Below, in pieces: positions 2,604-40,917 of a stretch of 54,984 bases of DNA. The notes beneath the pieces were generated by a model. It made no database searches. It was not told the DNA's origin and worked only from the letters and a program-made list of their open reading frames with translations. The stretch is from Prorocentrum cordatum (Eukaryota): the NCBI GenBank assembly GCA_963575745.1, contig CAUYUJ010000194.1, positions 62,001 to 116,984 on the forward strand, read 5' to 3'. The position numbers and the translations under genes are program-made. The stretch's first letter is position 1. Each line of letters opens with the position of its first letter.

Positions 2604-3649
2604 CTGGGCGCCGGCGGTAAACCGTCAACCTTGGTTACCGCCGGGAGACTCGTAGAGCTTCCTAGCTCGACTTAAGTTGAGAAAACCGACAGCACCTACC
2701 AACATTCCGACTTATAGTGAATATTTTTTGACCTCTCAATGCGACAGGCGGACGCGTCTGATGTCTGCGAATCGACTCCTGTCATTACCAGCCCCGCAGC
2801 CCCTCTCAGCCCGAGTTAAGTGCAGAAAACCGACAGCACCTCTCAGGATGACTCGAACAATACGAATAGTTTCGCGGACCTAGTTCGGGCAGCAGACAGA
2901 GTTCAGAGCTCTGGATTCGACAGGCGGACGCGCCTGATGTCTTCAAATCGATTCCTGTGACCACCAGCACTGTAGCCCCCCCCTCAGCGCGAGTTCAGTG
3001 AAGAAAACCGAGAGCACTTCTCAAGATGACTCGACCAATACGAATAGTTTCGCGATTCTAGATCGGGCAGCAGACCGAGTTCAGAGCACTGGATTCGACA
3101 GACAAACGCAACTGATGATTCTGAATCAGTTTCTGTAAATATCAGCTCTGTAGCTGTCCTACAGCTCGAGTTAAGTACAGAAAACCGAGAGTTCCTGTCA
3201 ATATTACTCGAATAATACGAATAGGTCTGCGGACCAAGCTCGGCTAAAAGACCGAGTTCAGACATCTGGATTCAACAGGCGAACGCGCCTAATCGTTGTA
3301 CATCGATTGGCTGTGCTTACCAGCTGTAGCTGTCCTAAAGCTCGAGTTATGTTCAGAAAACCGTCAGCGCGTAGCAAGATGACTCAAAACGGCCGATCCC
3401 GCCATGACGCTTTTCGATAGTAATACCCACCCGATCGAGCTGATATCAAGATGGCGAGCCGCAGTAAGATCATATATCACGGGAAACATACTAGAGCTCT
3501 AACGAATGGTCAGATTTCGAGAACATAATTTTCAACCGAGCCAAAGTTGTGAAAAGTTCAGTCGAGATTTTTCGAGCCAACTAGCCTGCCAGCGTTTTCG
3601 AATTACTCTTAAACTTCGCCGCTGCGCTCTCAGGGAAGCTCTACGAGTC
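2604..3649 (-). mobile_element. Complete Helentron-like element (type A)
   Basis: Hairpin and gactcgtagagcttcc at left, 178-bp repeats, conserved AT-rich tail, ggaagctctacgagtc at right, flanked by A on both sides. Confidence 0.75.
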
Positions 3650-3650
3650 A

Positions 3651-4700
3651 CTGGGCGCCGGCGGTAAACCGTCAACCTTGGTTACCGCCGGGAGACTCGT
3701 AGAGCTTCCTAGCTCGCCTTAAGTTGAGAAAAACCGACAGCACCTACCAACATTCCGGATTATAGTGAATATTTTTTTACCTGTGAATGCGACAGGCGGG
3801 CGCGTCTGATGTCTGCGAATCGACTTCTGTCATTACCAGCCCTGCAGCCCCCCCACAGCCCGAGTTAAGTGCAGAGGCCCGACAGCACCTCTCAGGATGA
3901 CTCGAAGAATATAATAGTTTTGCATACCTGATTCGGGCAGCAGACCGAGTTCTGAGCTCTGAATTCGACAGGCGGACGCGCCTGATGTCTTCAAATCGAT
4001 TCCTGTGACAACAAGCACTGTAGCCCCCCCTCAGCGCGAGTTCAGTGAAGAAAACCGAGAGCACTTCTCAAGATGACTCGACCAATACGAATAATTTCGC
4101 GATTCTAGATCAGACAGCATACCGAGTTCAGAGCTCTGGATTCGACAGACAAACACAAGTGATGATTCTGCATCGTTTTCTGTAAATATGAGCTGTGTAG
4201 CTGTCCTACAGCTCGAGTTAAGTACAGAAAACCGAGAGTTCCTGTCAAGATGACTCGAATAATACGAATAGGTTTACGGACCTAGCTCGGCTAAAAGACC
4301 GAGTTCGGAGCTCTGGATTCAACAGGCGAACGCGCCTAATCATTCTACATCGATTAGCTGTGCTTACCAGCTCTGTAGCTGTCCTAAAGCTCGAGTTATG
4401 TTCAGAAAACTGTCAACGCGTATCAATATGACTCAAAACGGCCGATCCCGCCACAGTGCTTTTCGATAGTAATATTCACCCGATCGAGCTGAGATCAAGA
4501 TGGCGAGCGGGAATAAGATCGAATATCACGGGAAAAAATACTAGAGCTCAAACGAATTGTTGAATTTCGAGAACAAAATTTTCAACCGACCCAAAGTCAG
4601 CAAAAGTTCCGTCGAGATTTTTCGAGCCAACTAGCTCTCCAGCGCGCCGGAATTACTCTTAGCTTCCAGCAATAACTTGCTAAGGGAAGCTCTACGAGTT
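3651..4700 (-). mobile_element. Complete Helentron-like element (type A), head-to-tail with the previous copy
   Basis: Both ends present. A single A at 3650 separates it from 2604..3649. Confidence 0.75.
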
Positions 4701-4933: not shown

Positions 4934-7712
4934 TCAACCTTGGTTTTTGTTTGTTTGGACTCGCGTTCCCAGCTGAGTGCAGCTGGGCGAGGACCGGTCC
5001 CGCAGAAGCACACGGGCAGCGCTGAGCAGCGCTTCGGCTGCCGACAATTCACATTCTGTGACTGTAGCTCCTTCGAGGAGCCACGCGGCCTCGGCCAAAT
5101 CGCTCCAAACGAGGGACACGGCACTAGAAACAGCAAGCTCATGCCCAGCAGGGAAGGGGCCCACGGTTCTCGCGGAAGCGATGCCTATCTCACTGGGATT
5201 GCACTGAGTATTGATTAAGCCGATCTGAAGCCAGAAACCACATCCTGATCCTTGCTGGTCAACCCCGCCATCAAAGCCTCCCCTGATAGCGAACGGTAAG
5301 AGATAAGTTTCGAATGGATATAGATAACAATGAGTTCTGTAGAATGTGCGGCCACATCTGGCCTCATGCGTCAATTCATCCGCTCGTGTATTGTCCTCCC
5401 TGAATTCATGTCTCCATATCTCACGTCCCAAGGCAGCAGGCCTCAGATTGAAACACGCAGCGAGCTCAAAGGTACAATCAATCATGGCAGCTGTCCTCTT
5501 GCAGTAGCCACGATTCTCACATCTCCATTTCCCCTGTAGCCAGGAGCAGATAAGTAATGAGTCACCCTTGAACTCAGCAGCAAAACCCTCTGAGGATATA
5601 TCCCACACAGTCGCACGTTCCTGGATCATAGCATAACGTATTGCAAGCTTGGCGGACTCTTTGGGGTCGTACTTGGGGTGCAGAGGGTTGGTCGCGATGT
5701 CGACCGCCTCAGTATCGGCCTTCTCTCGAGCCTCAGGGGAGCCTCGAGGTCCATTAGGAGAGCCCTTCCAAGACACCACAAAGTAATCATAGACCTTAGT
5801 TTTGTTGTATTGTGTAAGGAGTTGCTTCCATACCTCCAAGAACTGAACCCAATCGCCCCGTACAGACTCCCACCACTTTTCCCCAAAGAACTGAATGTAG
5901 GGGAACTGCCAAGACCGACCGCCCACAGACACAGGGCCTCCACGAAGCCGCTTGCCCGAACTAGATAAGGCCCTGTTGCCGTGTTGTCGTAGAACCTCTG
6001 TTATTGTGTCGCGAGCCGTGACCCAGCCAACATTGCACATCATAAGCGCACGTCGGGAGTCTCGAAAGGCCCTCCTCCCCTTTGAGACGGCAAGTGGCTC
6101 GTCTCTGAGAGTGTGGGCAGCTCCCTCTCCAGAGGGCATCGGCTGTGAGCGGGCAATGGAACAGGCGACCTGCGAGCAAAGATCCTCCAGCCGCCTCTCC
6201 ATATCCGTAATCCTCCCCTCCACCTCCGTCACAGTCGCTGCAGGTACATCCTCCCCCCGTCCATCCGTAAAGCGAACACGTTTAGCACGTTGAGTCGTTG
6301 ATCCCTCCACCTCAACCTCCGTCCTTGCCGTCCTGTCCTCCTCCAAAGATAGTAAATATTGCCTCGTGGAGCGCATCATGCCCCAGCTCTTCCAACACAG
6401 CATCTGCACAGCCGACGGGAAACCCCCATCGCAGAAGATTGTCCTGACTCGTGTCAGTGCAGCTGGCCGCCATACCTCCCACCCCACATCTCCTGGCTTC
6501 CTCCTCCCTGACATTCTCAGAAGACACATACCCTCGAACGCATGGATAACCCTCACACACTCACTGTCAATCGTGATGGCCTCTGCTGCATATAAAAGAC
6601 GGCTCTGCACAGTCGATTGATATCGACGAAACTTCTTCACCAGAGGCAGCGCCCTGCACGTAAAGTACTGCACCTGCGCAAAGAATGCCCTTCGGGCCTG
6701 CTGGACGCGCTCCTGCACATCCGCGTGGATAGAAGTGAAACTTCTGGGAATCTGATACCCCAGCACATTCAAACTCTCAACATGCTTGAAAGGAACAATC
6801 CGCGAGCCAATCTGAACCGTGACCGTATCAGTGTACTGAGTACCACACACCATCATCTCTAGACTCTCCTCCTTCCACTCCATCCCCCAATCCCTGAGAG
6901 CAGTAGTGAAGGCAGTGGCCGCTACCTGCGCCTCCGATGCTGATTTGGCGGCCAGAAAAATATTGTCAGCCCAGAGAGCATGATTCCAACGTGCATACCG
7001 ACAATGATCATCATGGCATGGCATCTCGACTCCGACACCGCGCTGATCCAGGCGAGCAATCACATCACGCCACATAGCAATAGTGACAATAGTAAACGCG
7101 ATAGGTGATTCGGTACCCCCAGTACGGAGCGACCGATCCCACTGCACATTGGGGATTGTCACTCCTTCAAACAGCACCGTGCATGAAGTAGATGAGAGAG
7201 GCTCCAATAACGCATACTGTAACCGTGCACTGATCCCAAGGGCCGTCATCGCTCTCGACTGTCGGCAACGTCACAGCATCAAACGCCCGCTCGATGTCAC
7301 AGCTGAGGAGCCACGCCGTTTGATCTCGCCCCCATGTGGAAGCATGTTGTGCAATACATTTCATGGCCGATGAAATCTCCCAGCAACGTCGTCCGCTGGT
7401 AAAACCGTAAACCGCCATATCACTCATGAAGGGTTCCACACATCGTTCCAGTAAAATCGTCACACACGTGAGATACCATTTGGCCAAGGTATTTCCGACA
7501 AGCAGGTTCCTTGTTTGTCGCAGTGTTTCCAGTTTGCTCGTTTTCGGCATAAGTGTTAGGTATACTTCCTGCCATTCCCTTGGCGTCGGGCGAAGCCCGT
7601 TGAATATATCAGAGAAAACCTTACCAATAGAACGCACTGACCTCCACGAAAGAGACTTGAGAAGTTCAACCGAGATGCCGTCGGGCCCACAGGCCCGTCC
7701 TGTTCGGAGCCT
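4934..7712 (-). pseudogene. ORF2 remnant of LINE copy A (RT plus permuted RNase H-like), 5'-truncated and frameshifted
   Basis: ORF 7167..7787 gives GPDG, YGF, CDIERAFD. ORF 4934..7249 continues with RTGG, LWADN, GDS, FDGG. Frame switch near 7250-7260 in a GAGA tract. Residues beyond 7712 are read from flanking repeat, and the stop codon is supplied by the target. Confidence 0.85.
4944..7712 (-). mobile_element. Non-LTR retrotransposon copy A, 5'-truncated within RT, inserted in the terminal hairpin of a Helentron-like element
   Basis: Left junction ccgtcaaccttgg|tttttgtttgttt (short A-rich tail on minus strand). Right junction joins ggggaactcgtagagcttcc at 7713 with target accgcc missing. 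Encodes RT motifs and an RNase H-like C-terminus. Confidence 0.92.
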
Positions 7713-9000
7713 GGGGAACTCGTAGAGCTTCCTGACAGTATATAGTATGGAAGGAAAATCCAGAAAACGACTAGTTTCTGAGCTCAAGCGATTTCAGACC
7801 TCTCAAGATGACTAACAAAAAAACAGTTTGCCAACCCAGCTCGAGTATCAAACCGAGTTCAGACCTCTGAATGCAACAGGCGGACGCGTGAAATGTCCGC
7901 GAATCGACTCCTGTGACTGGCCCTGCAGCCCCCCTACCGCCCGAGTTAAGTGCAGAAAACCGACAGCATGACTCGAATAATACAATAGTTTCGCGAACCT
8001 AGTTCGAACAACAGACCGAGTTCCGAGCTCTGGATTCGACAGACGGACATTGCTGATGTCTCTGAATCGATTTATGTCACCAGCAGCACTGTAGCCCTCC
8101 CCAAGCACGAGTTAAGTACAGAAAACCGAGAGCACTTCTCAAGATGACCCGAACAATACGAATAGTTTCGCAGACCTAGCGCGGGCAGCAGGCCGAGTTC
8201 AGAGCTCTCGATTCAAGAGACGAACGCGCCTAAAGATTCCCAATCGATTTCTGTGACTATGAGCTCTGCAGCTGCCCTACAGCTCGAGAAAAGTACAGAA
8301 AACCGAGAGCGTCTGCTACAATGACTCGACTAATACGAATAGGTTTGCGGACCTACCCCGGCTACCAGACCGAGTTCAGACCTCTGGGTTCAACAGGCGA
8401 AGGCGCCTAATCATTCTACATCGATTAGCTGTGCTTACCAGCTCTGTAGCTGCCCTAAAGCTCGAGTTATGTTCAAAAAACCGTCAGCACGTATCAAGAT
8501 GACTCGAAACGGCCGATCCCGCCACAGTGCTTTTCGATAGTAATATTCACCCGATCGAGCTGAGATCAAGATGGCGAGCGGGAATAAGATCGAATGTCAC
8601 GGGAAAAAATACTAGAGCTCTAACGAATTGTCAAATTTCGAGAACAAAATTTTCAACCGACCAAAAGTTATGAAAAGTTCAGTCGAAATTTTTCGAGCCA
8701 ACTAGCCTGCCAGCGTTTTCCAATTACTCTTAAGCTTCGCCGCTGCGCTCTCAGGGAAGCTCTACGAGTCATGCTCTGTGGCACCCTCCCGGGACGCTTG
8801 CAGAGCTCTGTCAACCCTTTCTGAAGCGATCCTGCATTGCTGCGGACCCGCTGCCGGGTCGGGCAATTTCAAAATCTCTCGCCATCTTCGAAAAACCAAC
8901 CCCAGGTCATCACATTGTCCGCCCGGGCCGGGTTGGCCAACTAGCTGCACCCCGCGCCGGAATTCCTCTAGCTCATCGATGCCGAAGAGCTCTACGAGGT

Positions 9001-9865
9001 AAACTCCAAGAGCGAAAACACCCTCTGGAACTGGAAATCTTGTCTCGGGATGTCTGGGGGGCCCCCCTGCAGCGCTGCTGAAGCGCTGCCAGGAACGCTT
9101 CCATGCGCGCCTGCACGCCTGCAGGCACGCGTGGACGCTTGCCGGAAGCTCTCCCGGACACGTCGCCGGGCCGGGCGAGGCGCTGCGAGGCGCGTGGACT
9201 GCCGTGGAAATACTTGTAAGCTTCCAGCAATAACATGCTACGGGAAGCTCTGCGAGTTATTTGTTCTGGCGGTCCTTCGGGCGCTCTCGTGAGGCGCTAC
9301 TGGGGTTCTGGGGGGTTCCCCGGCAGCGCTTCTGAAGCGCTGCCAGGAACGTTTCCGCGCGTGCCTGCACGCACGCGTGCAGGCACGCGTGGAATCTTGC
9401 TGGAAGCTCTTCCCGACCCGCTGCGACGTTTTAGCTCCCTCCGGGGATTCTGGACCGGCGAAGATGGGCTGCTGGCGGGCACCACCACCGTCCGGCTTCT
9501 AATCTTAAACCCTCTAGCTCTCAGAGAGCTCTCCGGGAATATCTTTCAAATATTCGCAAAACCACCAAAAGCTGTCACATTGGCCGCCTCGGCCGGGTGG
9601 GCCAACTAGCTCCACCCCGCGCCGGAATTCCTCTAGCTCATCGATACCGAAGAGCTCTACGAGGCACGTGGAAGCTTGCCGGAAGCTCTTCCGGACCCGT
9701 TGCTGGGTTGGGCGAGGCGCCGCGGAGAACGTGGACCGCCGTGTAGGAGCCCCTGACGGCACAACCACCGTCCGGCTTCTAATCTTAAGCGCTCTAGCCC
9801 TCAGCGAGCTCCCCGGGAAAAACCCGGAGAGAGAAGAGGTCCTTCGGGGGCGGGAAAACGGGAAA
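9001..9865. repeat. GC-rich palindrome-containing repeat fragments interleaved with stacked element ends
   Basis: cagcgcttctgaagcgctg, gcctgcacgc..gcgtgcaggc and caccaccaccgtccggcttctaatcttaa motifs, also at ~300-572, 4750-4912, 46425-47700 and 53860-54800. Confidence 0.8.
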
Positions 9866-9886
9866 CTGGGCGCCGGCGGTAAACTG

Positions 9887-9898
9887 TCAACCTTGGTT
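9887..9898 (+). repeat. Target-site duplication of LINE copy B, left copy
   Basis: tcaaccttggtt, repeated at 14953-14964; present once in uninterrupted hairpins. The last TT is ambiguous with the tail. Confidence 0.85.
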
Positions 9899-10110
9899 TT
9901 TCGTTTCGCGGACACACGGGCCCTAAGGCCCCGTCCAGTCCGAGGCGGGCGGGCACGCCAAACGCGGGCCACCGAGCGGCTAAGGCGAAAGCCTCACCAC
10001 GCCAAGCACGTGGGGGGCGGCTTAGGCGGTAGCCTCTGGCAGCTCTTATAAGGAGTGCGTACATCAACACAGTGTGTGCACGCATGAAGGCAACACACAA
10101 AAGAGAATCA

Positions 10111-13100
10111 TCAATCACACAACTTATCGCTAAAATAGGCCTGCAAAACCCGTGGGAGTGCTGCAATAACGCACTCTGCAGCGGGGAGTTCCGTATCCGT
10201 CACCGTGGACCCGTCTTGGAGAGCGAAGGAACAAACGTAAACGTCCTTGAAGATAATCTGTGGGGATTCACAGAAGGAAGAGGTGGGCGAGAGATGGGAG
10301 AATCGAGAACGCAGTCCTATCTGAATCCAAGCTCCACTTCCTGCTCCCAGGCTGCACACACCACCATCAAAGCCCGCTTTGATGAGGCAAGGTTCATAGC
10401 ATGACTGTTCGTATGGCTGCAACTGGTACTGTTCGTTCGTGTATTGGTGGCCCTCGCGGGCCTGGTGGGTAAGGAGGTCGGCTTTCTCATTCCATTCCCG
10501 AAACTCATGCTTCAGAAGATCGCGTCCTGCTTCAGCAGGTCTCACACCATACATACAACACATTCCTTCCAAAGCATTAATCATATTATCAACACGTGTC
10601 TGGTATAAGTGATTATCGGCCTTCCAGAGGCCGCAAAGCCAGCAAATGATAAGAAGAGAATCTCCTGTGATCTCCAACGGCACGCCTCCTGAAGTCACGT
10701 CCCAACATGTGCTCCTCATGTTGTGGATTGCTAATCTCTTACTGAATCGCAGGCGTGCAGCGGGAGAATCATCCTCTGTAACAACATACTCCTCATTTCG
10801 TTCAGCCAGAAAGACAGGGGAGTTACCATCATGGATACCTTTGCATTTCTTCTGGAAAAGCTTAAGCATAGAGGGTGTACAATGATGAGTTGCAAACTGC
10901 ATAAAGGCATGAAGGCCGCCTTGGAATACTTCCCACCACCGTGGGCCAAAGAACTCATGAAAGGGTGTCTGCCAACAACGTTGTCCGATCGCTTGCCCTC
11001 CTGACCTCCAGCGTTTCATAACTCCACATTCCCTCCACTTGCCGAAAGCCCGAAGGGCTTCTCCCTCAAGTGTGCGCAGCGTATCATAACTTATTCCAAA
11101 GGCAATCAAACACATGCGTGCATCACTCCATGCTCTATGCTCGTCCGTCATGTCCTCTCCCTGATACAACCTCTGCGCATATGCCGAGACATCCTTTGCC
11201 AGCAGCCACTGAGCTCGGAGAAATCTCTGGACCAAACTGTGGTACCCAGCCTCTGCGAACCTCGATCTGGCATCGCTGTATCTTCTCTCGTGCCATGTAG
11301 CATGGGATTCGTCTGGTTCTCGGCGGCATCGAAGCATGAAGCATAAACACTTGCCCTCAAACGCGTGCAATGCATGGAGGCTATCCTTGTCGGCCGTGCA
11401 GCCATCCGCACCGAAAAGGGCAATACTCTGAACCTTTTGCTGGTATCGTAGGAACTTGTCCTTCAGAGGCGTGCTTTTGTTCCGAAAATATCCTGCCTGG
11501 GAATAAAATGTCCGACGAGCCGCCTCAATCCTAGAGTCCACATCAAGGTGCGAGGAGTACTTATAATCAGAGAACAACTGGACGCCTAGAACCGTCATCT
11601 CAGTAACACGCCTGAACCGCATAACGTCATTCAGGAAGGGTACAAGTAAGTCGGCTGAAGATAGGATCAGCCCCTCTGCATCTCTCGCAGCGTCGGCTCC
11701 GAAGACCATGTAAAGCAAGCTTGAGGGTTTCCAGCGCATGCCGAAATCGTGGAGTCTAACAGTAAGGTCGTGAATCATGCGTGCCAATTCTTCCCTGCTT
11801 CGTGCCAAGATGTAGCAATTGTCTGCCCATACGAAGTGATTGACGACCGACGTGTAGGACGATTTGCCAGACTCCATGGGATCCCCAGTTTTAAAACACA
11901 CTTGATAACCTATGTTCTGTCTATCCCATTGTCGGAAGGTTTCCTGCCACATCGCAGCAATAATAAGATTGAACCCTAGGGGTCCCTCGGCACCGCCCGT
12001 TCTAATACATCTATCCCATCTCACACCCTCCACCTCGATACTTTCATGGCAAACCGTCCCCACACTATCGCATAGTGGATCAAGAAACGCATATTGAAGA
12101 TGATAAGGTACATGCGCGTGCTGCAAACCCCGTCTAACATTGGCTACCGTGCAATGGTCGAAGGCTTGTAGGATATCTGCATTGGCCAGATGTGCTGTTT
12201 CCCCCTTTCCCCATGTAGAAGCATGCTGTCCGATGTGTTTCAAACTCGCCGTGATCTCGTTCGTGGTGCGATTAGATTGGAAGCCGTAAAGACCGAGAGG
12301 GCGAAAGAGACCGTTTCGCTCGACATGTTGTTCCACCAAGATAACAATACATGTGCTGTACCATCGTGCAATAGCGTTCTGCATACATAGAAGCCTACCG
12401 TCCCTAAGATCCGTGATGCCAGGAAGCTCGGGCATAAAGGAGATGAGGATATCACGCCATGAGGAGGGGTACGGTGTGCACATGTGTAGCATATCGTCGA
12501 ACAGGCGTCGGATGTTGCGCAATATCGTCCAAGGGAGACACTTTAACACCTCACACGGTACTCGATCTGGCCCTGTGGCTCGTTGTGTACGGAGACGCGC
12601 CCGCCCACGTCCGAGCAACGCCATAGTGATGGTCGAATACGTGCTGCTACAGAGCTCCTCCCTCGCCTTCTCCTTGATCTCCTCCATCATACTAGCGTTC
12701 TCCTCCCGCATCTGATCCGATGAAAGCTTATTTCTGCAGAAACTGTCGAGCTCCTTCCTCCAAACCTCCCTGTCCTCCGTCTCCTGGCCCTCCACCACCA
12801 AGTGTTTAATATGATGACGAGTCTTTCGACGATTGAGGGGACACTTCCAGGCTGCAACATCTCTGCGATATCGACGGCGATGTAGATTAAGCTCACTCCT
12901 GAGACGTTTCTTTTCCTCTGGAGTCGTGTCTGACGGTAGTTCCCGCCATCTCTCCAAAAGACGAGTCAACTCGATCGGCCTCACAGGTGGCCTCTGCTTG
13001 CCGCTCTGCGTCGTGGTAAAGTCCACGTCAGGAGCAGCAACAAAAGACTGGATGAGCGTGCTAGGTAAGCTGGCTGGCTCCATCTCGAGAGAACGTGCGG

Positions 13101-14103
13101 GAATCCCACGAAACACAACATCTCCCAAGCTCCGATCCACCCTCCTCCTGGCATTGAACTCATCTCCCCATGTCACGCATCGATATCCTACCAGAGAGGG
13201 CGCCGGCGGCTCCACCCGCTCCCTGTGGTCACGTCGCACAATCACACGGCCAGGCGATGCAAACAGCCCAGTTAGAAGTGCATGATCACTTAATCGACTC
13301 CTATTCCTCCTTCCTCCTCTTGCATAACACCAAGAAACTTCACACTCAGAGCACTCCCAGCGGCTGGGCACCAAGATGTAATCGAGCACCTTCTGAATTC
13401 GTCCAAAGCTACGTTGCTCGCACCACGCTTCCCAAGTAGGACGCCTATCTGCAGAAAAGGTATTGGCCGCCTTAAACATGTGGGTCTGCATGAACCCCAG
13501 TAGCATCTCCATCATCCTCCTCCTCCTGTTGATACGCTCCCTCTCCTCCGTACCACATGCCAAGGTCCTGACCTCCTTCCTCAAGCCCTCTCCCGTGGCA
13601 AGATACAATTCCCCATTACATTCTAACTCACATAGTGGCGGTAGCTCAACATTCCCGTCAAGCAAACAAACAAAGCTGGCCTGGCTATACCTGTGTCTGA
13701 GGCTTCTGAAAGTGGCAGACACACGCTCAAGCGTGAGTTCATACTCCGCTTCGCAATCTTCTCGATGAGAATCGGGCAGGTAAAGAGAGCAGACAACCAA
13801 GGGCGAGATGGATGTACCGAACACACCAATGGCGAATCTAGAGAAAGTAGTAACGAATTCCCTGGACGTCGAGGCCCAACTTCGATCGAAGAGGAGCCCC
13901 GCCTTCCTGCAGGCACTGTGCTTGATCTGCCATCCGAGACGGGCGGCATCTGCATGAATTATATTCTGGGCCTCCTGAAGCGCGAACAGACCGCCACATG
14001 CACGCATATGGTTGAGCACCTCCACGCCTCTGAAGTTGTTCTCACCAGCCTTGTCGAGGTTCCAGCATCCCAACTTGATCCCCGACAGCCGGTGCCGATT
14101 CGG
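10111..14103 (-). CDS. LINE ORF2 polyprotein: APE (EEP) endonuclease, reverse transcriptase, circularly permuted RNase H-like domain
   Basis: APE motifs GCWN, LQE, YLP, DGN, NTF, PTW, LDY, SDH. RT motifs GPD, YGF, DILQAFD, RTGG, WADN. C-terminal GDS..HEFREWNEKAD, then FDGG..TEL. Frame is open back to the ORF1 TGA at 14104-14106; the track start at 14073 is a TTG. Confidence 0.92.
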   Translation of the reverse strand, partial: PNRHRLSGIKLGCWNLDKAGENNFRGVEVLNHMRACGGLFALQEAQNIIHADAARLGWQIKHSACRKAGLLFDRSWASTSREFVTTFSRFAIGVFGTSISPLVVCSLYLPDSHREDCEAEYELTLERVSATFRSLRHRYSQASFVCLLDGNVELPPLCELECNGELYLATGEGLRKEVRTLACGTEERERINRRRRMMEMLLGFMQTHMFKAANTFSADRRPTWEAWCEQRSFGRIQKVLDYILVPSRWECSECEVSWCYARGGRRNRSRLSDHALLTGLFASPGRVIVRRDHRERVEPPAPSLVGYRCVTWGDEFNARRRVDRSLGDVVFRGIPARSLEMEPASLPSTLIQSFVAAPDVDFTTTQSGKQRPPVRPIELTRLLERWRELPSDTTPEEKKRLRSELNLHRRRYRRDVAAWKCPLNRRKTRHHIKHLVVEGQETEDREVWRKELDSFCRNKLSSDQMREENASMMEEIKEKAREELCSSTYSTITMALLGRGRARLRTQRATGPDRVPCEVLKCLPWTILRNIRRLFDDMLHMCTPYPSSWRDILISFMPELPGITDLRDGRLLCMQNAIARWYSTCIVILVEQHVERNGLFRPLGLYGFQSNRTTNEITASLKHIGQHASTWGKGETAHLANADILQAFDHCTVANVRRGLQHAHVPYHLQYAFLDPLCDSVGTVCHESIEVEGVRWDRCIRTGGAEGPLGFNLIIAAMWQETFRQWDRQNIGYQVCFKTGDPMESGKSSYTSVVNHFVWADNCYILARSREELARMIHDLTVRLHDFGMRWKPSSLLYMVFGADAARDAEGLILSSADLLVPFLNDVMRFRRVTEMTVLGVQLFSDYKYSSHLDVDSRIEAARRTFYSQAGYFRNKSTPLKDKFLRYQQKVQSIALFGADGCTADKDSLHALHAFEGKCLCFMLRCRREPDESHATWHERRYSDARSRFAEAGYHSLVQRFLRAQWLLAKDVSAYAQRLYQGEDMTDEHRAWSDARMCLIAFGISYDTLRTLEGEALRAFGKWRECGVMKRWRSGGQAIGQRCWQTPFHEFFGPRWWEVFQGGLHAFMQFATHHCTPSMLKLFQKKCKGIHDGNSPVFLAERNEEYVVTEDDSPAARLRFSKRLAIHNMRSTCWDVTSGGVPLEITGDSLLIICWLCGLWKADNHLYQTRVDNMINALEGMCCMYGVRPAEAGRDLLKHEFREWNEKADLLTHQAREGHQYTNEQYQLQPYEQSCYEPCLIKAGFDGGVCSLGAGSGAWIQIGLRSRFSHLSPTSSFCESPQIIFKDVYVCSFALQDGSTVTDTELPAAECVIAALPRVLQAYFSDKLCD

Positions 14104-14952
14104 TCACACCTTGCGGTTGACCTCTACCTCGAAGTCCGTCGCTGTGATCGTCAGATTTGGGAACTTCACCTGAAGTTGGCCCCACTGCGTCTCATGGATC
14201 GTCCACGTCTGGGCTGCTCCGAATTCAGCGATACAGATCGGGCGGAGGAGTCGGTCGCCCTGAGCCTTGACCCACATGTTCGATTTCGGGGGGCCAACCT
14301 CTCCCCTCACCTCCAGGACCAAGCCGTGGCGCTGGCACACGTTACGCCAGGCCCCGCAGAAGCGACCAACTGCACGAACATGGTCGCGCTTCCAAGGAGC
14401 TGATTCGATATTGAAACGTAACTGAGTCGGGTCGATGACCTGCGTCATGCCTGCGATGAGCACGCTGGGATCTGGAATAGTCGTCCCTTCTGGCAAGGGG
14501 GCTCGCTGTGCAGTGGGAGTCACAATGATCCTGAGGAGCTTCTGGAAACGATATAGCACCTCTCGATCAGTGAATGGAAGAAACTTGATGCGACAACTGC
14601 CGAACATGTAGCGACCCGCATTGATACGCTCTGTCCCCTCCTTGCTGAGAAAGGCCTGGTCATCTGAGGCAATAACTTTGGATATATTGTCTACGAGTAT
14701 CATGGTGTCGTCAGAAGTCAGCATTTGAGCACAACGATTCTGATGATTGGCCCAATCCGTAACCCACCCCTTGACCTCGATGTATGTTGGAGAGAACTGG
14801 TTCCTACCCCCGCCTCCTCCACCGCCCCCGTCAGCGGGGCCGCTCCCAGCACTGAAGGTAGACACCGCACTCCCATTCTGAACCGTTTTTAGTGTTTTCT
14901 CGAGTTCGTCCATACGTTTATCCGTTCCGTCCATACGTTTAGTGTGTTCTGC
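14104..14952 (-). CDS. LINE ORF1 protein, 5'-truncated (coiled-coil end, Gly-rich linker, putative RNA-binding domain)
   Basis: Open to the element junction (AEHTKRMDGTDKRMDELEKTL). Homologous to 39420..40823 (PTYIE.KGWVT.W, GRYMFGS, APWKRDHV.AV.RFCGA, EVRGE.GPP). The ORF1 role is inferred from position. Confidence 0.8.
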   Translation of the reverse strand, partial: AEHTKRMDGTDKRMDELEKTLKTVQNGSAVSTFSAGSGPADGGGGGGGGRNQFSPTYIEVKGWVTDWANHQNRCAQMLTSDDTMILVDNISKVIASDDQAFLSKEGTERINAGRYMFGSCRIKFLPFTDREVLYRFQKLLRIIVTPTAQRAPLPEGTTIPDPSVLIAGMTQVIDPTQLRFNIESAPWKRDHVRAVGRFCGAWRNVCQRHGLVLEVRGEVGPPKSNMWVKAQGDRLLRPICIAEFGAAQTWTIHETQWGQLQVKFPNLTITATDFEVEVNRKV

Positions 14953-14964: not shown

Positions 14965-15930
14965 ACCGCCGGGAGACTCGTAGAGCTTCCTACCTCGACT
15001 TAAGTTGAGAAAACGAACAGCACCTACCAACATTCCAACTCATAGTGAATATTGTTTGACCTCTGAATGCGACAGGCGGACGCGTCTGATGTCTGCGAAT
15101 CGAATCCTGTCATTACCAGCCCTGCAGCCCCCCTGCAGCCCGAGTTAAGTGCAGAAAACCGACAGCACCTCTCAGTATGACTCGAACAATACAATAGTTT
15201 CGCAGACCTAAATCGGGGAGCAGACCGAGTTCCGAGCTCTGGATTCGACAGGCAGACGCGCCTGATGTCTTCAAATCGATTACTGTGACCACCAGCACTG
15301 TAGCCGCCCTCAGCGCGAGTTGAATGAAGAAAACCGAGAGCACTTCTCAAAGATGACTCGACCAATACAAAGAGTTTCGCAATTCTAGATTCGGCAGCAG
15401 ACCGAGTTAAGAGCTCTGGATTCGACAGACAAACGCAACGAATGATTCTGAATCGGTTTCTGTAAATATCAGCTCTGTAGCTGTCCTACAGCTCGAGTTA
15501 AGTACAGAAAACCGGGAGATCCTGTCAAGATGACTCGAATGATACGAATAGGTTTGCGGATATAGCTCGGCTAACAGACCGAGTTCAGACCTTTGGATTC
15601 AACAGACGAACGCGCCTAATCATTCTACATCGATTAGCTGTGCTTACCAGCACTGTAGCTGTCCTAAAGCTCGAGTTATGTTCAGAAAACGGTCAGCGCG
15701 TATCGAGATGACTCAAAACGGCCGATCCCGCCACAGTGCTTTTCGATAGAAGTATTCACCCGATCGAGCTGAGATTAAGATGGCGAGCGGGAATAAGATC
15801 GAATATCACGGGAAAAAATACTAGAGCTCAAACGAATTGTTCAATTTCGAGAACAAAATTTTCAACCGACCAAGATTTTTCGAGCCAACTAGCTCTCCAG
15901 CGCGCCGGAATTACTCTTAGCTTCCAGCAA

Positions 15931-23716: not shown

Positions 23717-24934
23717 TTTTTTTTTTGGGGGGGGAGGCTGACCAGGCACCGAGCGCCCCAGCGCCCGTTAAGTGCCTACCTAGTCTCTCTGCAGCTGGAG
23801 GTCTTGGGCCACCTGGGCTGCGGCCCGCAAGAGGCCCTCGAGACCCGAAAGCTCAGCGTCAGTGATACTGCTATGGGAGGGGAGTGCCTGTGCACAACGC
23901 CCTACTACTTCCCATATGATTGGACAAGGAGAGGAGGCTTGGGGGAAGAGGGAGACTACACGAGCTCTCTTATCTCTATGTTCAGGGTCAGGGTACGGAT
24001 CATGGAAACGAGGGATATATCCAATCTGCAGAAACCAACCAACGCCCACACCTTGGGCACACACTCCGCCATCGAAGGATCCGCGGAGGCCGATAACTCG
24101 AAAGTTGTCTTGAACATCAGGACGGAAGATATGGTGGTGGAACAGCTCTCTGAATATCTGGCCTTCCCGTGCTAGATGGGTAAGTTCATCAGCTACTGTA
24201 TTACTCTCCCGATATATGTGTCGAATAAAGTCATTGCCCCATGAGGGGGGTCGTACTCCTTCCTCCTCCAATTCTTCCAAAAGAGAAATAATATTTGCAA
24301 CCCGCCTACGATAAGAAGCCCCATCTCCTCCTTCTCCTCCTTCAACCTTCCAGAGACCGTTGATCCAATTACAGATAAGAAGCGAATCGCCCGTCAGCTC
24401 CAGACCGATCCCATCATCACTCAGATCCCAAGTCGGCTCCTGTTCATTGTTCGAGGCCAATCTCTGGGCCAGCTTCTCAGACTCCTTCACCGACAACGGA
24501 CGGGCCATCATCTCCTCCCCCCTCTCCTTTATGTAGTTTCCTCGTCCTCCAGTTCCTCCACGGACAACAAACAAGTCAAACAGAGAACCCAAAGTACAAG
24601 CTTCCAGGAACTGCCTGCAATACTGAACGAAGTCAGAGTAAGAGAAAGAGCACGCCCTCCACCACCGATCCTCCAGATTCACAAACGAGGGAAATATCGT
24701 CTGGAACATGAAACACCAAGGATGTTCACCCGTCGCCTGCCCCTTAGCACTGCCTAATCGTGTCAGTTTCGAGGCCTCCTTCCACTTCCACTGGGAACGC
24801 AAACATTCTGACTCAAGTGTCCTTTTCTCCTCCCACCTCGGGGTACAACACATCAGAAGCCGACGTGCGTCTCGATGCGCTCGAGGAAACACCGTCTGTT
24901 GTCCAGGTCCAGGAACTGCCACCCTCCGACGCTT
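23717..24934 (-). mobile_element. Non-LTR retrotransposon copy C, heavily 5'-truncated
   Basis: ccgtcaacctttg followed by T10 (23717-23726). Right junction at cgggggactcgtagag with target accgc missing. Encodes only the post-RT region and RNase H-like domain. Confidence 0.9.
23780..24934 (-). pseudogene. 3' fragment of LINE ORF2 (permuted RNase H-like domain)
   Basis: RDARR, WD, LELTGDSLLICNW, HIYRESNTVADEL, SFDGG, DAEL align with the other three copies. The track's N-terminal residues (24935-24985) come from the flanking repeat. Confidence 0.85.
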
Positions 24935-26260
24935 CGGGGGACTCGTAGAGCTTCCTGACTCGTAGGGATGTGAGAAAAAATCCAAAGAACGACTATTTTT
25001 TCAGCCGAAGCAATTTCAGACCTCTCAAGATGACTCTAACAAAAAAACAAACACCTCCAATAATACAATAGGTTCGCGGACCTAGTTCGAGCAGCAGACC
25101 GAGTTCCGAGCTCTGGGTTCTTCGACAGACAGACGCGTCTGATGTCTCAGAATCGATTTCCGTGACCAGCAGTACTGTAGCCCTTTCCAGCACGAGTTAA
25201 GTGCGGAATACCGAGAGCACTTCTCAGAATAACTCGAACAATACAAATAGTTTTGCGAACCTAGCTCGGGCAGCAGGCCGAGTCCAGAGCTCTCGATTCG
25301 ACGCACGAACGCGTCTGATGATTCCCAATCGATTTCTGTGACTATGAGCTCTGTAGCTGCCCTAGAGCTCGAGTTCAGTATAGAAAACCGAGGGCGTCTA
25401 TGAAGATGACCAAAATGATACGAATATGTTTGCGGACCTAGCTCGGCTAGCAGAACGAGTTCAGACGTCTAGATTCAACATGCGAACGCGCCTAATGATT
25501 CTGAATGCGATAGGCGTGCTTACCAGCTCTGTAGCTGTCATTTAGCTCGAGTTAACTACACAGAACCGAGGGCGTCTATCAAGATGACCCAAATAATACC
25601 AATAGGTTTGCAGACCTAGCTCGGCTAGCAGACCGAGTTCAGACCTCTAGATCCAACAGGCGAACGCGGTTAATGATTCTGAATGCAATAGGTGTGCTTA
25701 CCAGCTCTGTAGCTGTCCTGTAGCTCGAGTTAAGTACAGAGAACCGAGGGCGTCTATCAAGATGACCCAACTAATATCAATAGGTTTGCAGACCTAGCTC
25801 GGCTAGCAGACCGAGTTCAGACCTCTAGATACAACAGGCGAACGCGGTTAATGATTCTGAATGCAATAGATGTGCTTAACAGCTCTGTTTCTGATCTACA
25901 GCTCGAGTTAAGTACAAAATACCGATACCGCGTATCAAGATGACTCGAAACGGCCGATCCCGCCAGAGTGCTTTTTCGCAGTAAAAGCTACCCGATCGAG
26001 CTGAGATCAAGATGGCGAGCGGGAATAAGATCGAATATCACGGGAAAAAATACTAGAGCTCAAACGAATTATTGAATTTCGAGAACAAAATTTTCAACCG
26101 ACCAAAAGTCAGCAAAAGTTCCGTCGAGATTTTTCTTGCCAACTAGCTCTCCAGAGCGCCGGAACTGGCGCCGGCGGTAAACCGTCAACCTGGTCACCGC
26201 CGGGAACCTCGTAGAGCTCCTTCCACGGGTGAGAGTGCTTAGAATCGACAGAGAGAGCTT

Positions 26261-35429: not shown

Positions 35430-38400
35430 TCAAGTCTGTGATAACCATAGAACTGCCTGTGGGAGCGCAGTCACGATGCACTCCAAAGCACTGAGTTCTG
35501 TATCAGTAACAGTTGTGGTCGGAGAAATAAGCCAAGCCCTCTCAAAAACTGACTTCCATATCAGCTGAGCGGGGTCCCGTCGATCCCAATACCGAGGTTT
35601 GAGGCCTATGTCTATCCAGCAACCGCACCCACATCCCTCAGACGACACGCCGCCATCGAAACCAGCCCGAATAGCAGCAGCAACGTAAAATTCTGTCTCA
35701 TAATCATGTGTATACGGACTACATTCTGAACTAGAAATCTGGCCCTCTCGGGCCTGGTGTGTTAGAACGTCGGCACGAGTGTTCCACTCCCGAAAATCAT
35801 GACGAATAAGATCCATACCCGGCGCTGGAGGTCGTATATTATAGCTGCAACAAAGCCCATCAAGCGTATTGATAATTTTTGATATTCTATCCGCATATGA
35901 TCTATTATCTGCACGCCACCGTCCCGTAGCCCAGCTAACCACGAGAAGCGAGTCACCCACCACCTCCAGAGGGATTCCAGGGGCCTCCAGGTTCCAACGG
36001 GTTGCTTTCATATTATGAAGAGCGATGCGCTTTGCAAGTTTCTCAGCAGCCATCGGACTATCATCCGTGCTCACCTGGATTTCACCATGCTCGGAGGGCG
36101 CCAAATATGCGGGCGAACTCACAGGTCCGCACGTCGACACCTCCTGGAAACATTGAAGCATGCTATGAGTACAAAGGTGCGTGGCGTATTGCATAAATCC
36201 AAGCTGGGAGCCTGTGAAATGAATCCACCAATCATCTCCGAAAAACTCAGCTAATGTATATTGCCATGATCTCTGTCCAATACTCTCCGTACCTCGACAG
36301 CGACGTTTGTAAGAAGAGGCCTCCGACCAGTTGCCAAAGTGTCTCATCGTCTCGCTCATAAGTGTACGAGTGCGGTCAGTGTACGGTCCAAAACATAAAC
36401 TCGCCATACGGGAATCGCGCCATGTCCTCTCCGCCGCCTTCAAGTCAATCACTTTCTCAACAATCATGCCATTTGCGAAACTTGCAATGTCTTTTGCGAA
36501 ATTCCAGTGCAATATCAGATAACGCTGGACAAGAGAGGAGTACCCAGCCTTCAAGAAACGTTCCCGTGCGACATGATATCTCCTCTGCTGATAAGCTTGC
36601 TCCGTTTCCGTCGGGCCTTTTCGAGAAGAGATCATCATCTTCAGGCATTTCCCTTCGAAGGAATGGAGAAACGAGAGAGTATAAGAATCTGCAGTGGTGG
36701 TCTCCATACCATACAGAGCCAGGCTCTGGACTCTGTCCTGGTATCTCCGCAGCTTATCCTTGAGAGGAATACAGTGCGACCTGAAATACCCTGCCTGAGA
36801 GTAAAATGCGCGACGAGCACAGTCTACGCGAAAAGAAACATCACGATGTACAGAACAGCTATATTCACTATGCAGCTGCGTGCCCAGTACGTCCATAGAA
36901 ACAACTCTACGGTAACATAACTCATCAATCTGCTGCACTGCATTCCTCCCGTCACATGCATCTGAGAAGATCGGTATTTTAAGATCCATCGAACGCGGGA
37001 TATTCCCGTCCTCATCCAAGACAGCAGGAGCTCCGCACACCATGTACTTCAGCGATGTGGGTTTCCATCGCATCGAGAAGTTGTAAAGTGGAAGTGTCAA
37101 GTCTCTTACCATACGAGTAAGCTCCTCACGGCTACGACTGACGAGGTACACGTTATCTGCCCAGATAAAATGATTCACCACCGACCGATGCTCCGTACCG
37201 AAATCTACCGCATACCCCATGCCCTGAACGTCCCAATTATGAATAACGTCACCCCACATGGCAGCAATAATGAGGTTAAAGCCCAAGGGCCCTTCTGGGC
37301 CTCCAGTCCTAATACAGGTGTCCCACTGGATGTTATCAATCTCCAACCCGTCATAGTAGAGGCAGCCCGTGCTGTGCGATAACGGATCCAGAAACGCGTG
37401 CTGTAAATACGCAGGGACACGTGCATGCTCAAGACCCTTATGAACGTTCTGTATCGTGCAGTTGTCAAAGGCCTGGTATATGTCCATGTCCGCAACGTAC
37501 AGACACTCACGCTTCCCCCACTTGTCCCCGTGCATACACATGTTAGTAAGGCTACTCGTGATATGGGATGTGCTGTGACCCTGACGGAACCCATAGAGGC
37601 CCAGAGGATGAAATAGCTTAGACTCTTCCACATGCTGCTCCACCAGGATAACTACGCACGCCGAGAACCAGCGAGTTATGCTATTCTGTAAGCACAAGAG
37701 TCGAGCATCCGCCAAGTTCGTGATCCCCTTTAGTTTAGGCATGTATGCAATGAGAATGTCCCTCCATCGAACAGGGTACTGGACAACCAGCCTCAAAAGA
37801 GAGTCGAAGATCTGTTGGATGTGCCGAACTGTGCACCATGGGAGAAGCTTGAGCATTTCACAAGGTACGCGATCCGGTCCTGTTGCCCGTCGCGTTCGAA
37901 GACGAGCCCTCGCTGCACAACATATCGACATCGTAATACTTCGAATGATCTGGCCACCCTTGATCTCCTCCTCCGCCTTCCTCCTGATTTCCTCCATCAA
38001 GTTGCTGTTCTCCTCCCTCCTACGCTGTGATGTCACCTTCCCCTTAACATGCTCCTCCAACTTCTCCTTCAAGATATATCTATCCTCCGTCTCCCATCCA
38101 TCAACCACCACATGTTTGATACGATGTCGAATCTTACGACGAGTCGGGGGTACAGCCCATTCAAGAAGATCACGCCGATACTGTCTCCTCCAAACATTGG
38201 CAGCTGCTCTGAGTCTCTTTTTCTCTGGACCATTCTGAAGGGACCGAATCCGCTCTTCGAGACGTGTGAGCTCGGGCGGGCGAGTAGGCGCTGGAGGCCG
38301 GGCAGCTGAGGCCGTGGAGTAATCCACATCCTCCTGCGTAAATGCTTTCAAAATGACAGGAGCGGTCTCTGTCACGTCCTGTGGTCGTGTCGACGCAGCT

Positions 38401-39419
38401 GGAGGGGAACCACATCCAGCAAACACGGCACCGCAAAACTCGAGGTCAACCCTTTCCCTCCCTATCATCTCGTCCGCATACGTCTGAGCCCGCCATCCCA
38501 CCAAAGAAGGTTCCCTATGCACACGCTCGACTGTCCAATCAGTCCTGCCAGGACTGGACTGTCGTACTGTGCACATAACTAGAGCATGATCAGCAAGTCT
38601 ACTACGATTATGAGTTCCTCCGCTGCGATACTTGAAATCGATCTTACACTCCTGCACCTCCCACCCCATCGGAACCATCACATAGTCTAAGACTCTCCTC
38701 ATCGATCTAGTCCGAGAACGATTTCGCTCTTGTCCCCAGGGCTCCCAGGTCGGGCGACGACGGTCGAAGGTGTTGGCAGCTAACAAACCCCAAGTCTGCA
38801 TAAAGGTCAGCAAGTTATCCGTCAATATCTGCCTCCTATCCTTCCTCTCCCTCTCCGCCTTCCCCTCAGATCCCGTCCTCCTCCATGATTTCGTACCTGT
38901 CCCAGTGGCAGCATAACCCTGACCTGCAACCTCAAGCTGAACAAGTGGTGGCAACTCAACATTGGCATCCGCAAGCAAACAAAAGCTGGCCTGACGATAT
39001 TTCTGCTTCAAGAGACGGATCTGACCCTCCAACTCCCCCAGCATTTCCGCCGATTCAAGATCACACTGATCACGATCATGATGTGGAAAATAAGCCGAAC
39101 ATATGATCACCTGAGACGCCTCCGTTCCAAACACACCCAAGACAAATCTATCGCAGTCTGTGACACATTCGCGCAGGAGTTGGGCCCACCCATGGGCATA
39201 CAACAAGCCTGCACGTCTATCCCTGGAAGGTTTAAAATGCCAACCGAGTCTATCTAATTCAGCTGAGTCAAAGAACTCACACTCTTGCAAACCGAAAATT
39301 GAAGAGGCTCCTATCTTCCTCAGAGATGTTAGAACCTCGGTCCCACGTGAGTTGGAAACACCCGAATTACCTACATTCCATGTTCCGATACGAAGTCCCT
39401 TGCTCCAATATCGTTTTTG
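35430..39419 (-). CDS. LINE ORF2 polyprotein: APE endonuclease, reverse transcriptase, circularly permuted RNase H-like domain
   Basis: Frame is open upstream of the track start (39290) through QKRYWSKGLRIGTWNVG..FGLQE to the ORF1 TGA. APE motifs TWN, LQE, YFP, DAN, LDY, ADH. RT motifs DIYQAFD, RTGG, WADN. Then GDS..READ-like block (REWNTRAD) followed by FDGG..TEL. Confidence 0.92.
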   Translation of the reverse strand, partial: QKRYWSKGLRIGTWNVGNSGVSNSRGTEVLTSLRKIGASSIFGLQECEFFDSAELDRLGWHFKPSRDRRAGLLYAHGWAQLLRECVTDCDRFVLGVFGTEASQVIICSAYFPHHDRDQCDLESAEMLGELEGQIRLLKQKYRQASFCLLADANVELPPLVQLEVAGQGYAATGTGTKSWRRTGSEGKAERERKDRRQILTDNLLTFMQTWGLLAANTFDRRRPTWEPWGQERNRSRTRSMRRVLDYVMVPMGWEVQECKIDFKYRSGGTHNRSRLADHALVMCTVRQSSPGRTDWTVERVHREPSLVGWRAQTYADEMIGRERVDLEFCGAVFAGCGSPPAASTRPQDVTETAPVILKAFTQEDVDYSTASAARPPAPTRPPELTRLEERIRSLQNGPEKKRLRAAANVWRRQYRRDLLEWAVPPTRRKIRHRIKHVVVDGWETEDRYILKEKLEEHVKGKVTSQRRREENSNLMEEIRRKAEEEIKGGQIIRSITMSICCAARARLRTRRATGPDRVPCEMLKLLPWCTVRHIQQIFDSLLRLVVQYPVRWRDILIAYMPKLKGITNLADARLLCLQNSITRWFSACVVILVEQHVEESKLFHPLGLYGFRQGHSTSHITSSLTNMCMHGDKWGKRECLYVADMDIYQAFDNCTIQNVHKGLEHARVPAYLQHAFLDPLSHSTGCLYYDGLEIDNIQWDTCIRTGGPEGPLGFNLIIAAMWGDVIHNWDVQGMGYAVDFGTEHRSVVNHFIWADNVYLVSRSREELTRMVRDLTLPLYNFSMRWKPTSLKYMVCGAPAVLDEDGNIPRSMDLKIPIFSDACDGRNAVQQIDELCYRRVVSMDVLGTQLHSEYSCSVHRDVSFRVDCARRAFYSQAGYFRSHCIPLKDKLRRYQDRVQSLALYGMETTTADSYTLSFLHSFEGKCLKMMISSRKGPTETEQAYQQRRYHVARERFLKAGYSSLVQRYLILHWNFAKDIASFANGMIVEKVIDLKAAERTWRDSRMASLCFGPYTDRTRTLMSETMRHFGNWSEASSYKRRCRGTESIGQRSWQYTLAEFFGDDWWIHFTGSQLGFMQYATHLCTHSMLQCFQEVSTCGPVSSPAYLAPSEHGEIQVSTDDSPMAAEKLAKRIALHNMKATRWNLEAPGIPLEVVGDSLLVVSWATGRWRADNRSYADRISKIINTLDGLCCSYNIRPPAPGMDLIRHDFREWNTRADVLTHQAREGQISSSECSPYTHDYETEFYVAAAIRAGFDGGVSSEGCGCGCWIDIGLKPRYWDRRDPAQLIWKSVFERAWLISPTTTVTDTELSALECIVTALPQAVLWLSQT

Positions 39420-40823
39420 TCATTGGCGTCTGTTGACCTCACTCTCTAACATCTGCTTAGTGACAGCCGCCACCGCAGGAAATGCGCTGACAACCTGCTG
39501 CCACTGCGGCTCGTGCACCTCCCAAGTATTACGAGCTGAAGTGAATGTGGCAATATTGATGGGACGCAAAGCACCCTTGGCGACGGTCCATATCAACGAT
39601 CGCGGTGGTCCAATTTCTCCTCTCACTTCGATCTGGGCGTGCTGTTGCGTCATCGTTCTGAACGCTCCGCAAAACCTCGCCACAGCTTTAACGTGATCCC
39701 TTTTCCAAGGTGCGCACTCGATTTGGACACGTAAATTTGATCCTGGGAACTGAATCGCAAGGCCCTCAGTCAAGACTGCAGGTAAGGGCAGACCATTGTG
39801 CCCATCAACAGTATTCTTAATGATTGCATCCCACTTCTTTTTAATCGTCCAGAGCAGGTCCCTACTCGTATTGGGTTTGAAACTGATCTTGACACTGCCA
39901 AACATATACCTGCCCGAATTGATACGCTCAGTTGTTTCACGATCTACTGCATCCTTCTCGAGTTGATTGCATCGCTCCAAGCAATTGTCGATAAGTTTTT
40001 GGCAATCACTCCACGTTAGGAGTTGCTCCGCCCGCGCGCCATGATCTGACCAATTCGTCACCCACCCCTTCAACTCAATGTATGTCGGTCTGAAATCCTG
40101 GAAACGCGAGCTGGGAGATAAGCCAGGCGGCCCGCCGCCTCCAATACCTCCACCAGCCGTAGTACGAGAAACATCTGATCCAGCACCACTTCCATTATGT
40201 ACTTGACGCAGGGCCTCTTCAAATTTATTCATCCTCTCCTCCATCTTATTAGCTCTGTCATCGTGCTTCTGCAATGTACTCTCCACGGCTTTGATATGAT
40301 TGTTCGTGTTCTGAATGGTCTGTAAAATCTCCTCCTTACTATCCTCTGCTTTGAAGAAATGGTCCATGACGAACCGCTCAAACCCAGTGGTGGCAGTTTT
40401 CATCATCTCCTCACGTTGTTTTTGAATATCACCTCCATTCCTCGGTCTCTTGTTTTCTTTATTTGTGTCCACAGCAGCGTTCATATTTGCATCAACCGAA
40501 GAGGATGCACCCAACATTATTGCTTCTGAAATCTGTGATGGAATACCCCACTTGTTTAGAAATGCTTTGTCGTCTTCACGCTGTCGTTTCCCTGATGCAC
40601 GCTCCAAGGATCTTAAATCAGCGGCGTCCCAAGGTTCAAATTGATCCAAGTAGTCGAAATGATCCACACGGTCCTCTCGAGGTGTCAATGGGCAGTCAAG
40701 ATCTTGACTTGTATTCTGATGCCACTGAGCAACTGTTTCGTTCCAACGCCCCAATCCAATTGCTTCCAACAAAGCTTGTCTCGACTCGGGTGTGTCGTAC
40801 GACGTGGTCCCAAATACTTGCAC
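39420..40823 (-). CDS. LINE ORF1 protein (coiled coil plus putative RNA-binding region); start uncertain
   Basis: 467-codon open frame from a GTG. The first ATG of the element is in frame at 40517 (365 aa). Heptad-like segment IQNTNNHIKAVESTLQKHDDRANKMEERMNKFEEAL. Homologous to copy B ORF1. Confidence 0.8.
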   Translation of the reverse strand: MQVFGTTSYDTPESRQALLEAIGLGRWNETVAQWHQNTSQDLDCPLTPREDRVDHFDYLDQFEPWDAADLRSLERASGKRQREDDKAFLNKWGIPSQISEAIMLGASSSVDANMNAAVDTNKENKRPRNGGDIQKQREEMMKTATTGFERFVMDHFFKAEDSKEEILQTIQNTNNHIKAVESTLQKHDDRANKMEERMNKFEEALRQVHNGSGAGSDVSRTTAGGGIGGGGPPGLSPSSRFQDFRPTYIELKGWVTNWSDHGARAEQLLTWSDCQKLIDNCLERCNQLEKDAVDRETTERINSGRYMFGSVKISFKPNTSRDLLWTIKKKWDAIIKNTVDGHNGLPLPAVLTEGLAIQFPGSNLRVQIECAPWKRDHVKAVARFCGAFRTMTQQHAQIEVRGEIGPPRSLIWTVAKGALRPINIATFTSARNTWEVHEPQWQQVVSAFPAVAAVTKQMLESEVNRRQ

Positions 40824-40917
40824 GAAGAATTACGATATGCACCTCAGGCTCTGCTGATCACTACCGCTGGCCTTGGCGGAGGTAGCCCAGGCAGGACAAA
40901 GTCAGCGGCTCCGTGAC

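Follow-up and report, generated by a model that had tools for sequence, protein, structure and literature searches.

A putative circularly permuted archaeal-like RNase H at the C-terminus of ORF2 in LINE retrotransposons of Prorocentrum cordatum

RNase H is a textbook fold, and the element-encoded RNases H of other long interspersed nuclear elements (LINEs) are held to degrade the RNA of RNA:DNA hybrids. The archaeal-like subgroup, whose signature is an Arg in the active-site motif, has been described at the C-terminal end of the second open reading frame (ORF2) in plant Ta11 L1 and oomycete L1 elements, and the accessible part of the same study reports, from a Repbase screen, that retrotransposons with an archaeal-like RNase H (aRNH) occur in plants and oomycetes only (PMC5348765). 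For retroviruses and Tat long terminal repeat (LTR) retrotransposons, the accessible parts of two other reports describe dual (tandem) RNases H (PMC4408406, PMC10508981). Here we analyze four LINE-like elements, every one on the minus strand, in a 54,984-nucleotide stretch of DNA from Prorocentrum cordatum (assembly GCA_963575745.1, contig CAUYUJ010000194.1, positions 62,001 to 116,984 of the forward strand; hereafter "the window", in whose numbering all coordinates are given). We propose, with a probability of about 0.8, that the C-terminus of their ORF2 (~200 residues) is a circularly permuted archaeal-like (RVT_3) type 1 RNase H.

In the four elements, termed here copies A to D, the C-terminal ~200 residues of the LINE ORF carry the motifs GDS, H..RE.N..AD, FDGG and T.T.AEL in this order. 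Pairwise identity of the copies in the RNase H domain is 38-47%, with GDSLL, H..RE.N..AD.LTH.AR, FDGGV..G.G.G and T..EL...E invariant across all of them. We divided the domain into a C-half (beta4 to alphaE, containing GDS and H..AD) and an N-half (beta1 to alphaA, containing FDG and AEL), and scanned the window in six frames with a separate hidden Markov model (HMM) for each half, built from a 51-sequence alignment of the domain (A2) in which the four window copies are included. Over its full length, the window yielded exactly four pairs, each time with the C-half upstream in the reading direction (C-half i-E 5.9e-31 to 7.7e-27, N-half i-E 1.4e-22 to 3.8e-20); these scores are partly circular, and the independent part of the result is that none of the six frames holds any other half-domain match, the next best i-E values being 0.62 and 6.0. 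The canonical chain order beta1-beta2-beta3-alphaA-beta4-alphaB..beta5-alphaE fails in 4/4 copies, as it does in 128/128 relatives described below. A preliminary description of this DNA, made from the sequence alone, had claimed the GDS-half-first order for copies A, B, C and D, and the motifs are indeed found in that order, on the minus strand, in all four; the coordinates it gave (10150-10685, ~5010-5580, ~23820-24405 and ~35450-35975) match the half-HMM spans within ~25 nt.

The domain is most easily followed in copy B, where it occupies 10138..10689 on the minus strand (ORF2 residues ~1139-1322) and comprises the C-half (beta4-alphaB-alphaD-beta5-alphaE) at 10447-10689, a joining linker at 10402-10446, and the N-half (beta1-beta2-beta3-alphaA) at 10138-10401. 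The catalytic codons are those of D1148 (10660-10662), H1199 (10507-10509) and D1209 (10477-10479) in the C-half, and of D1246 (10366-10368) and E1305 (10189-10191) in the N-half. On the same strand, the permuted domain of copy A spans 4994..5590 (C-half 5348-5590; N-half 4994-5296, with a longer beta2-beta3 insertion), that of copy C spans 23801..24418 (C-half 24158-24418; N-half 23801-24100), and that of copy D spans 35448..35981 (C-half 35739-35981; N-half 35448-35684). The ORF stop lies 17-34 codons past the last helix motif in copies B, C and D, and farther away in copy A.

A profile of the A2 alignment, run against all PDB sequences, returned seven matches at E<=10, of which six are archaeal-like type 1 RNases H; the E-values are 1.8e-9 for 4e19, 4.6e-7 for 3u3g, 9e-6 for 3aly, 1.1e-5 for 2ehg, 2.2e-5 for 4h8k and 0.013 for 3hst. 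Residues 65-128 of 4e19 (FDGA..G..GWVL..AE) correspond to profile positions 145-215, and its residues 134-197 (GDSQLV..H..R..N..ADALA) to profile positions 56-130, i.e. the two halves are swapped. D136, E195, D38 and D99 of the domain align with the FDG, AE, GDS and AD positions of 4e19, respectively, and R92 aligns with the Arg of RE.N in 3u3g and 2ehg. A profile of the four window copies alone reached E=0.34 against the PDB. Among the A2 members, the Pfam family RVT_3 (PF13456) matches 39/51 at E<=1 and RNase_H matches 2/51; the RVT_3 cut-off of 21.6 bits is passed by the relatives P0141 (33.1 bits) and P0109 (21.8 bits), while the window copies by themselves stay under it, and Pfam recognized no RNase H in the whole ORFs of the LINE copies. 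Positions 56-123 of the RVT_3 model map ahead of the FDG motif and, in P0109, positions 2-57 map after it. The two half-matches in swapped order that had been anticipated from RNase H profiles were therefore obtained with both 4e19 and RVT_3. In a protein-language-model look-up, the domain lies beside the RVT_3/RNase_H clusters (score 0.92). With E-values of 1.8e-9 to 2.2e-5 between the family profile and solved RNases H, the motif match is not due to chance, and sequence comparison supports the assignment of the domain to type 1 RNases H of the archaeal-like (RVT_3) kind, with the catalytic D-E-D-D set and the active-site Arg.

The same arrangement recurs in the relatives of the domain. A library-wide profile search yielded 453 of them at E<=1e-3, 147 at E<=1e-10 and 31 at E<=1e-30. 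Residues G37, D38, H89, R92, E93, N95, A98, D99, D136, G137 and E195 are invariant in the 51 sequences of A2, including the four acidic residues (D38, D99, D136, E195) whose conservation had previously been claimed for the window copies. Scanning 182 stored relatives with the half-HMMs detected both halves in 128, in swapped order in 128/128 and with no extra half copies, 81 of the 128 being outside HMM building; the order count carries the caveat that the relatives had been retrieved using a permuted-order profile. The C-half alone was found in 42/182 and the N-half alone in 11/182, mostly in end-truncated fragments, and neither half in 1/182. Each of 22 long proteins contains a single C-half followed by a single N-half, and in agreement with the preliminary description no FDG motif was found before the GDS block in any of them (best extra i-E 0.17). 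Two separate complete domains, the arrangement named there as contrary to a permutation, were found neither in the 22 long proteins nor in the window scan nor among the 182 relatives. The distances between catalytic residues are 57-66 residues from D38 to D99 and 38-74 from D136 to E195, with 27-43 residues across the join from D99 to D136; in E. coli, the spacings that correspond to the first two are 64 and 38, and the motif spacings match a rotated RNase H. All organism-named relatives come from P. cordatum, except one EukProt record labeled Pyramimonas sp. (a green alga). This record, P0182, is a 152-aa fragment of the permuted domain with 48% identity, and stems from contamination or else reflects a wider range of hosts. 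In the window, the spliced-leader motif of dinoflagellates is matched 0 times.

AlphaFold2 with A2 predicts a single compact domain (model 1; pLDDT 94.4, pTM 0.89). Its elements, to which canonical names were assigned from the motif positions, are beta4 (strand 31-37, ending at D38), alphaB (helix 40-46), alphaD (helix 55-75), beta5 (strand 87-89, with H89), alphaE (helix 96-106, with D99), a new linker (strand 111-114 and helix 120-125), beta1 (strand 126-140, with D136), beta2 (strand 143-156), beta3 (strand 173-185), and a long alphaA (helix 191-218, with E195). The same element order is predicted by AlphaFold2 for P0141, which is 26% identical (pLDDT 86.4, pTM 0.79). Structure prediction, which had been suggested as a check, thus gives one confident compact domain in which all nine core elements follow the rotated RNase H order. 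Order-dependent aligners matched one half at a time and gave no structural match over the whole domain. A helix upstream of beta4 (helix 4-19 in model 1) was considered as a relic of a first-copy alphaA and rejected; it is absent from the second model, and its alignment columns are 60-70% occupied. Taken together, the swapped half-matches, the constant order in relatives and the confident single-domain model favor the natural permutant claimed in the preliminary description.

The domain also appears to be maintained. PolyA RNA-library contigs (two libraries, a single study) extend over 10106-11370 without joints or gaps, at ~97% identity, and a single 1346-nt contig of this kind spans the entire permuted domain; two further runs (one probably of DNA, one of unrecorded kind) contain 353 and 75 contigs that match copy B. 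RNA-library cover of copy B ORF2 is patchy, with 12492-14200 uncovered except for one bin, which is not evidence of absence. The RNA-library contigs are consistent with transcription; RNA libraries can contain DNA. Among the differences from these contigs, 21/29 are synonymous in ORF2 (random expectation 0.22, p=9e-9) and 10/13 within the domain (random single-base expectation 0.23, p=5e-5), where the test concerns the listed differences only (237 more lie outside it) and the random model has no transition bias. Since the catalytic residues are invariant in 51 diverged sequences and synonymous changes are in excess, purifying selection on the permuted domain, which had been asserted earlier, is supported at the sequence level. 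Full-length ORF2 frames are still open in two copies, B and D.

If the domain is a permutant, its chain would start with beta4 (GDS, third catalytic Asp), continue through alphaB, alphaD and beta5 to alphaE (H..RE.N..AD, fourth Asp), pass through the new linker, across which the fourth and first Asp are 27-43 residues apart, and end with beta1 (FDGG, first Asp), beta2, beta3 and alphaA (T.T.AEL, catalytic Glu). The old termini would be joined, and the new ones would be located at the former alphaA-beta4 loop. Folded within one chain, the two halves would restore the usual sheet of five strands and bring the D-E-D-D residues together in one metal site. Such a domain may digest the RNA strand in the RNA:DNA hybrids that the reverse transcriptase (RT) of the element produces during target-primed reverse transcription, removing the RNA template after first-strand synthesis. 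As to its origin, the most likely, though speculative, route is that an RNase H was duplicated in tandem and that the N-half of the first copy and the C-half of the last were then lost. Neither the 22 long proteins nor the six-frame scan of the window showed a relic half, be it in the ORFs, the 3' flanks or the other frames.

Several alternatives to a working intrachain permutant were weighed. The permuted fold may have changed its job, and either bind hybrids without cutting them or cut DNA in second-strand cleavage. The new chain ends together with the long C-terminal helix (helix 191-218) would alter the attachment to the reverse transcriptase, and many LINEs manage without an RNase H of their own, according to the accessible part of the aRNH study (PMC5348765). 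On the other hand, the four acidic residues and the His, Arg and Asn of H..RE.N..AD are invariant in 51 diverged sequences, this invariant set is the pattern predicted for a working RNase H site, and no residue replacement is seen in any subgroup, so we consider a changed function unlikely. Another variant is that two ORF2 proteins form a domain-swapped dimer, their halves complementing each other in trans; an order of C-half, linker and N-half would permit this. We rate it lower still, as the monomers alone are already compact and confidently modeled by AlphaFold2 (pTM 0.89 and 0.79), and the 27-43 residues that separate the fourth catalytic Asp from the first should be sufficient for intrachain closure.

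The truncated or frameshifted state of copies A and C could speak for a more trivial explanation, in which misassembly, exon shuffling introduced by the annotation, or motifs arising by chance would produce the swap, or two broken domains would have left a decaying relic. This we regard as very improbable: the order is the same in four diverged copies and in 128/128 database proteins from several sources, the RNA-library and DNA contigs are uninterrupted and show no joints, two copies have open frames of 1329-1330 codons, the differences are mostly synonymous, and the profile reaches E=1.8e-9.

The remaining parts of the elements exhibit non-LTR retrotransposon features, namely a reverse transcriptase of the non-LTR kind, occurrence in many copies, an ORF1 upstream of ORF2 (copies B and D), a broken copy (A) and a 3' fragment (C). 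ORF2 of copy B (10111..14103, minus strand) is open over 1330 codons and comprises an endonuclease-like N-terminal region, a reverse transcriptase and the C-terminal permuted RNase H; its ORF1 (14104..14952, minus strand) has 282 codons. In copy D, ORF2 (35430..39419, minus strand) is open over 1329 codons and ORF1 (39420..40829, minus strand) has 469 codons. Copy A has an open stretch of 778 codons (4934..7270, minus strand) with the end of the RT and the permuted RNase H, the upstream part of the RT being in a different frame (7167-7793). Copy C (23780..25000, minus strand) is a 5'-truncated 3' LINE fragment of 406 codons with satellite arrays on either side. Pfam recognized the reverse transcriptase in copies A, B and D; with respect to the RVT_1 cut-off of 29.6 bits, copy D is above it (34.6 bits, E=2.1e-8), and copies B (27.5 bits) and A are below. 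For a five-sequence profile of full-length ORF2, the top solved relative was 8gh6_A ("Reverse transcriptase-like protein", E=0.013), an R2 element protein, and a homologue search with the RT region returned two proteins. The putative N-terminal endonuclease of ORF2 is weakly recognizable (Exo_endo_phos in Pfam, E=0.095, copy D only), and a phmmer search of the PDB with the first 300 residues of copy B ORF2 gave 0 matches at E<=1.

In both copies B and D, ORF1 and ORF2 share a frame and are separated by a single TGA, located on the minus strand at 14104-14106 (B; flanks 14071-14142) and at 39420-39422 (D; flanks 39387-39458). The nonamer GAGGTCAAC occurs shortly upstream of this TGA in both copies, and in copy B ORF2 no Met occurs before residue 33, a position already within the putative endonuclease N-terminus. 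The same-frame single TGA, the nonamer and the lack of a Met before residue 33 in copy B suggest that ORF2 of these copies is made by stop-codon readthrough or reinitiation.

Most of the window is filled by arrays of a ~177-bp satellite (e.g. 768-4410, 15098-23443, 25240-34795, 41087-46092), and the four LINEs sit among them in identical orientation. The arrays have ~2-5 units each and recur approximately every 1 kb, one of them reaching 12.8 units (28722-30982). A series of tandem-repeat rows at 45593-47474 recurs at 53030-54910 with a constant offset of 7436-7437 nt, which points to a direct segmental duplication spanning ~1.9 kb or more. Between two satellite arrays, 1924-2004 consists of 81 uninterrupted A. 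Downstream of copy B, a GC-rich stretch at 8700-10000 (57% GC in 8001-10000) contains internally repeated modules that encode similar peptides in several frames, and may be the 3' untranslated region of the element or another repeat.

With respect to novelty, the full-text literature, as far as accessible, contained no description of a permuted RNase H, whether from retroelements or from nature at large; subscription journals and supplements are outside this scope, and a prior description is possible. In the main text of a survey of the RNase H-like superfamily (PMC3985635) there are 0 occurrences of "permut" or "circular", which suggests that permuted members are not discussed there. A permuted RNase H in LINEs seems new to the accessible literature. 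We lean slightly towards the broader view that it is the first natural circular permutant of type 1 RNase H, fixed in a dinoflagellate LINE clade of high abundance and probable expression in marine plankton, that it represents a separate capture of an archaeal-like RNase H beyond plants and oomycetes, and that the RT is attached to the opposite side of the fold, with an altered geometry of polymerase-nuclease coupling. A selected natural permutant, represented by hundreds of diverged sequences, would mean that the fold can be opened in the alphaA-beta4 loop and closed at its termini, and would provide a natural experiment for RNase H folding and for nuclease-polymerase coupling in retroelements. 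It would also extend the capture of archaeal-like RNases H by LINEs to a third eukaryotic group. If the domain is indeed permuted, this would be the reason why standard domain scans miss the RNase H of these LINEs; Pfam recognized none in 3/4 window copies, and therefore dinoflagellate LINEs are probably annotated as lacking RNase H.

Compared with archaeal-like RNases H, such as Halobacterium RNase H1 (4e19), Sulfolobus tokodaii RNase HI (2ehg/3aly) and LC11-RNase H1 (3u3g), the LINE domain has the same motifs (FDG, T..AE, GDS, and H/..RE.N..AD.LA), the same four acidic residues and the Arg of RE.N, with similar motif spacings within each half; it differs in that the halves are swapped, that the span of 27-43 residues between the fourth and the first Asp bridges the old termini, and that a long alphaA ends the chain. 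As in plant Ta11 L1 and oomycete L1, an archaeal-like RNase H is the last domain of the LINE ORF2, but the accessible text describes those elements with the ordinary order, whereas here the host is dinoflagellate-like and the domain appears permuted; the accessible text of the same study (PMC5348765) has 0 mentions of "dinoflagellate", "Alveolata" or "permut". No tandem RNase H intermediate was detected among the 22 long proteins or the 182 relatives. Retroelements with dual RNases H, as far as they are described in the accessible text, have gained a second RNase H next to the first, by duplication or addition, one of the two decaying, and thus exemplify the type of intermediate that a route through duplication and trimming would need; they keep one whole domain, whereas the permuted LINEs would keep half of each.
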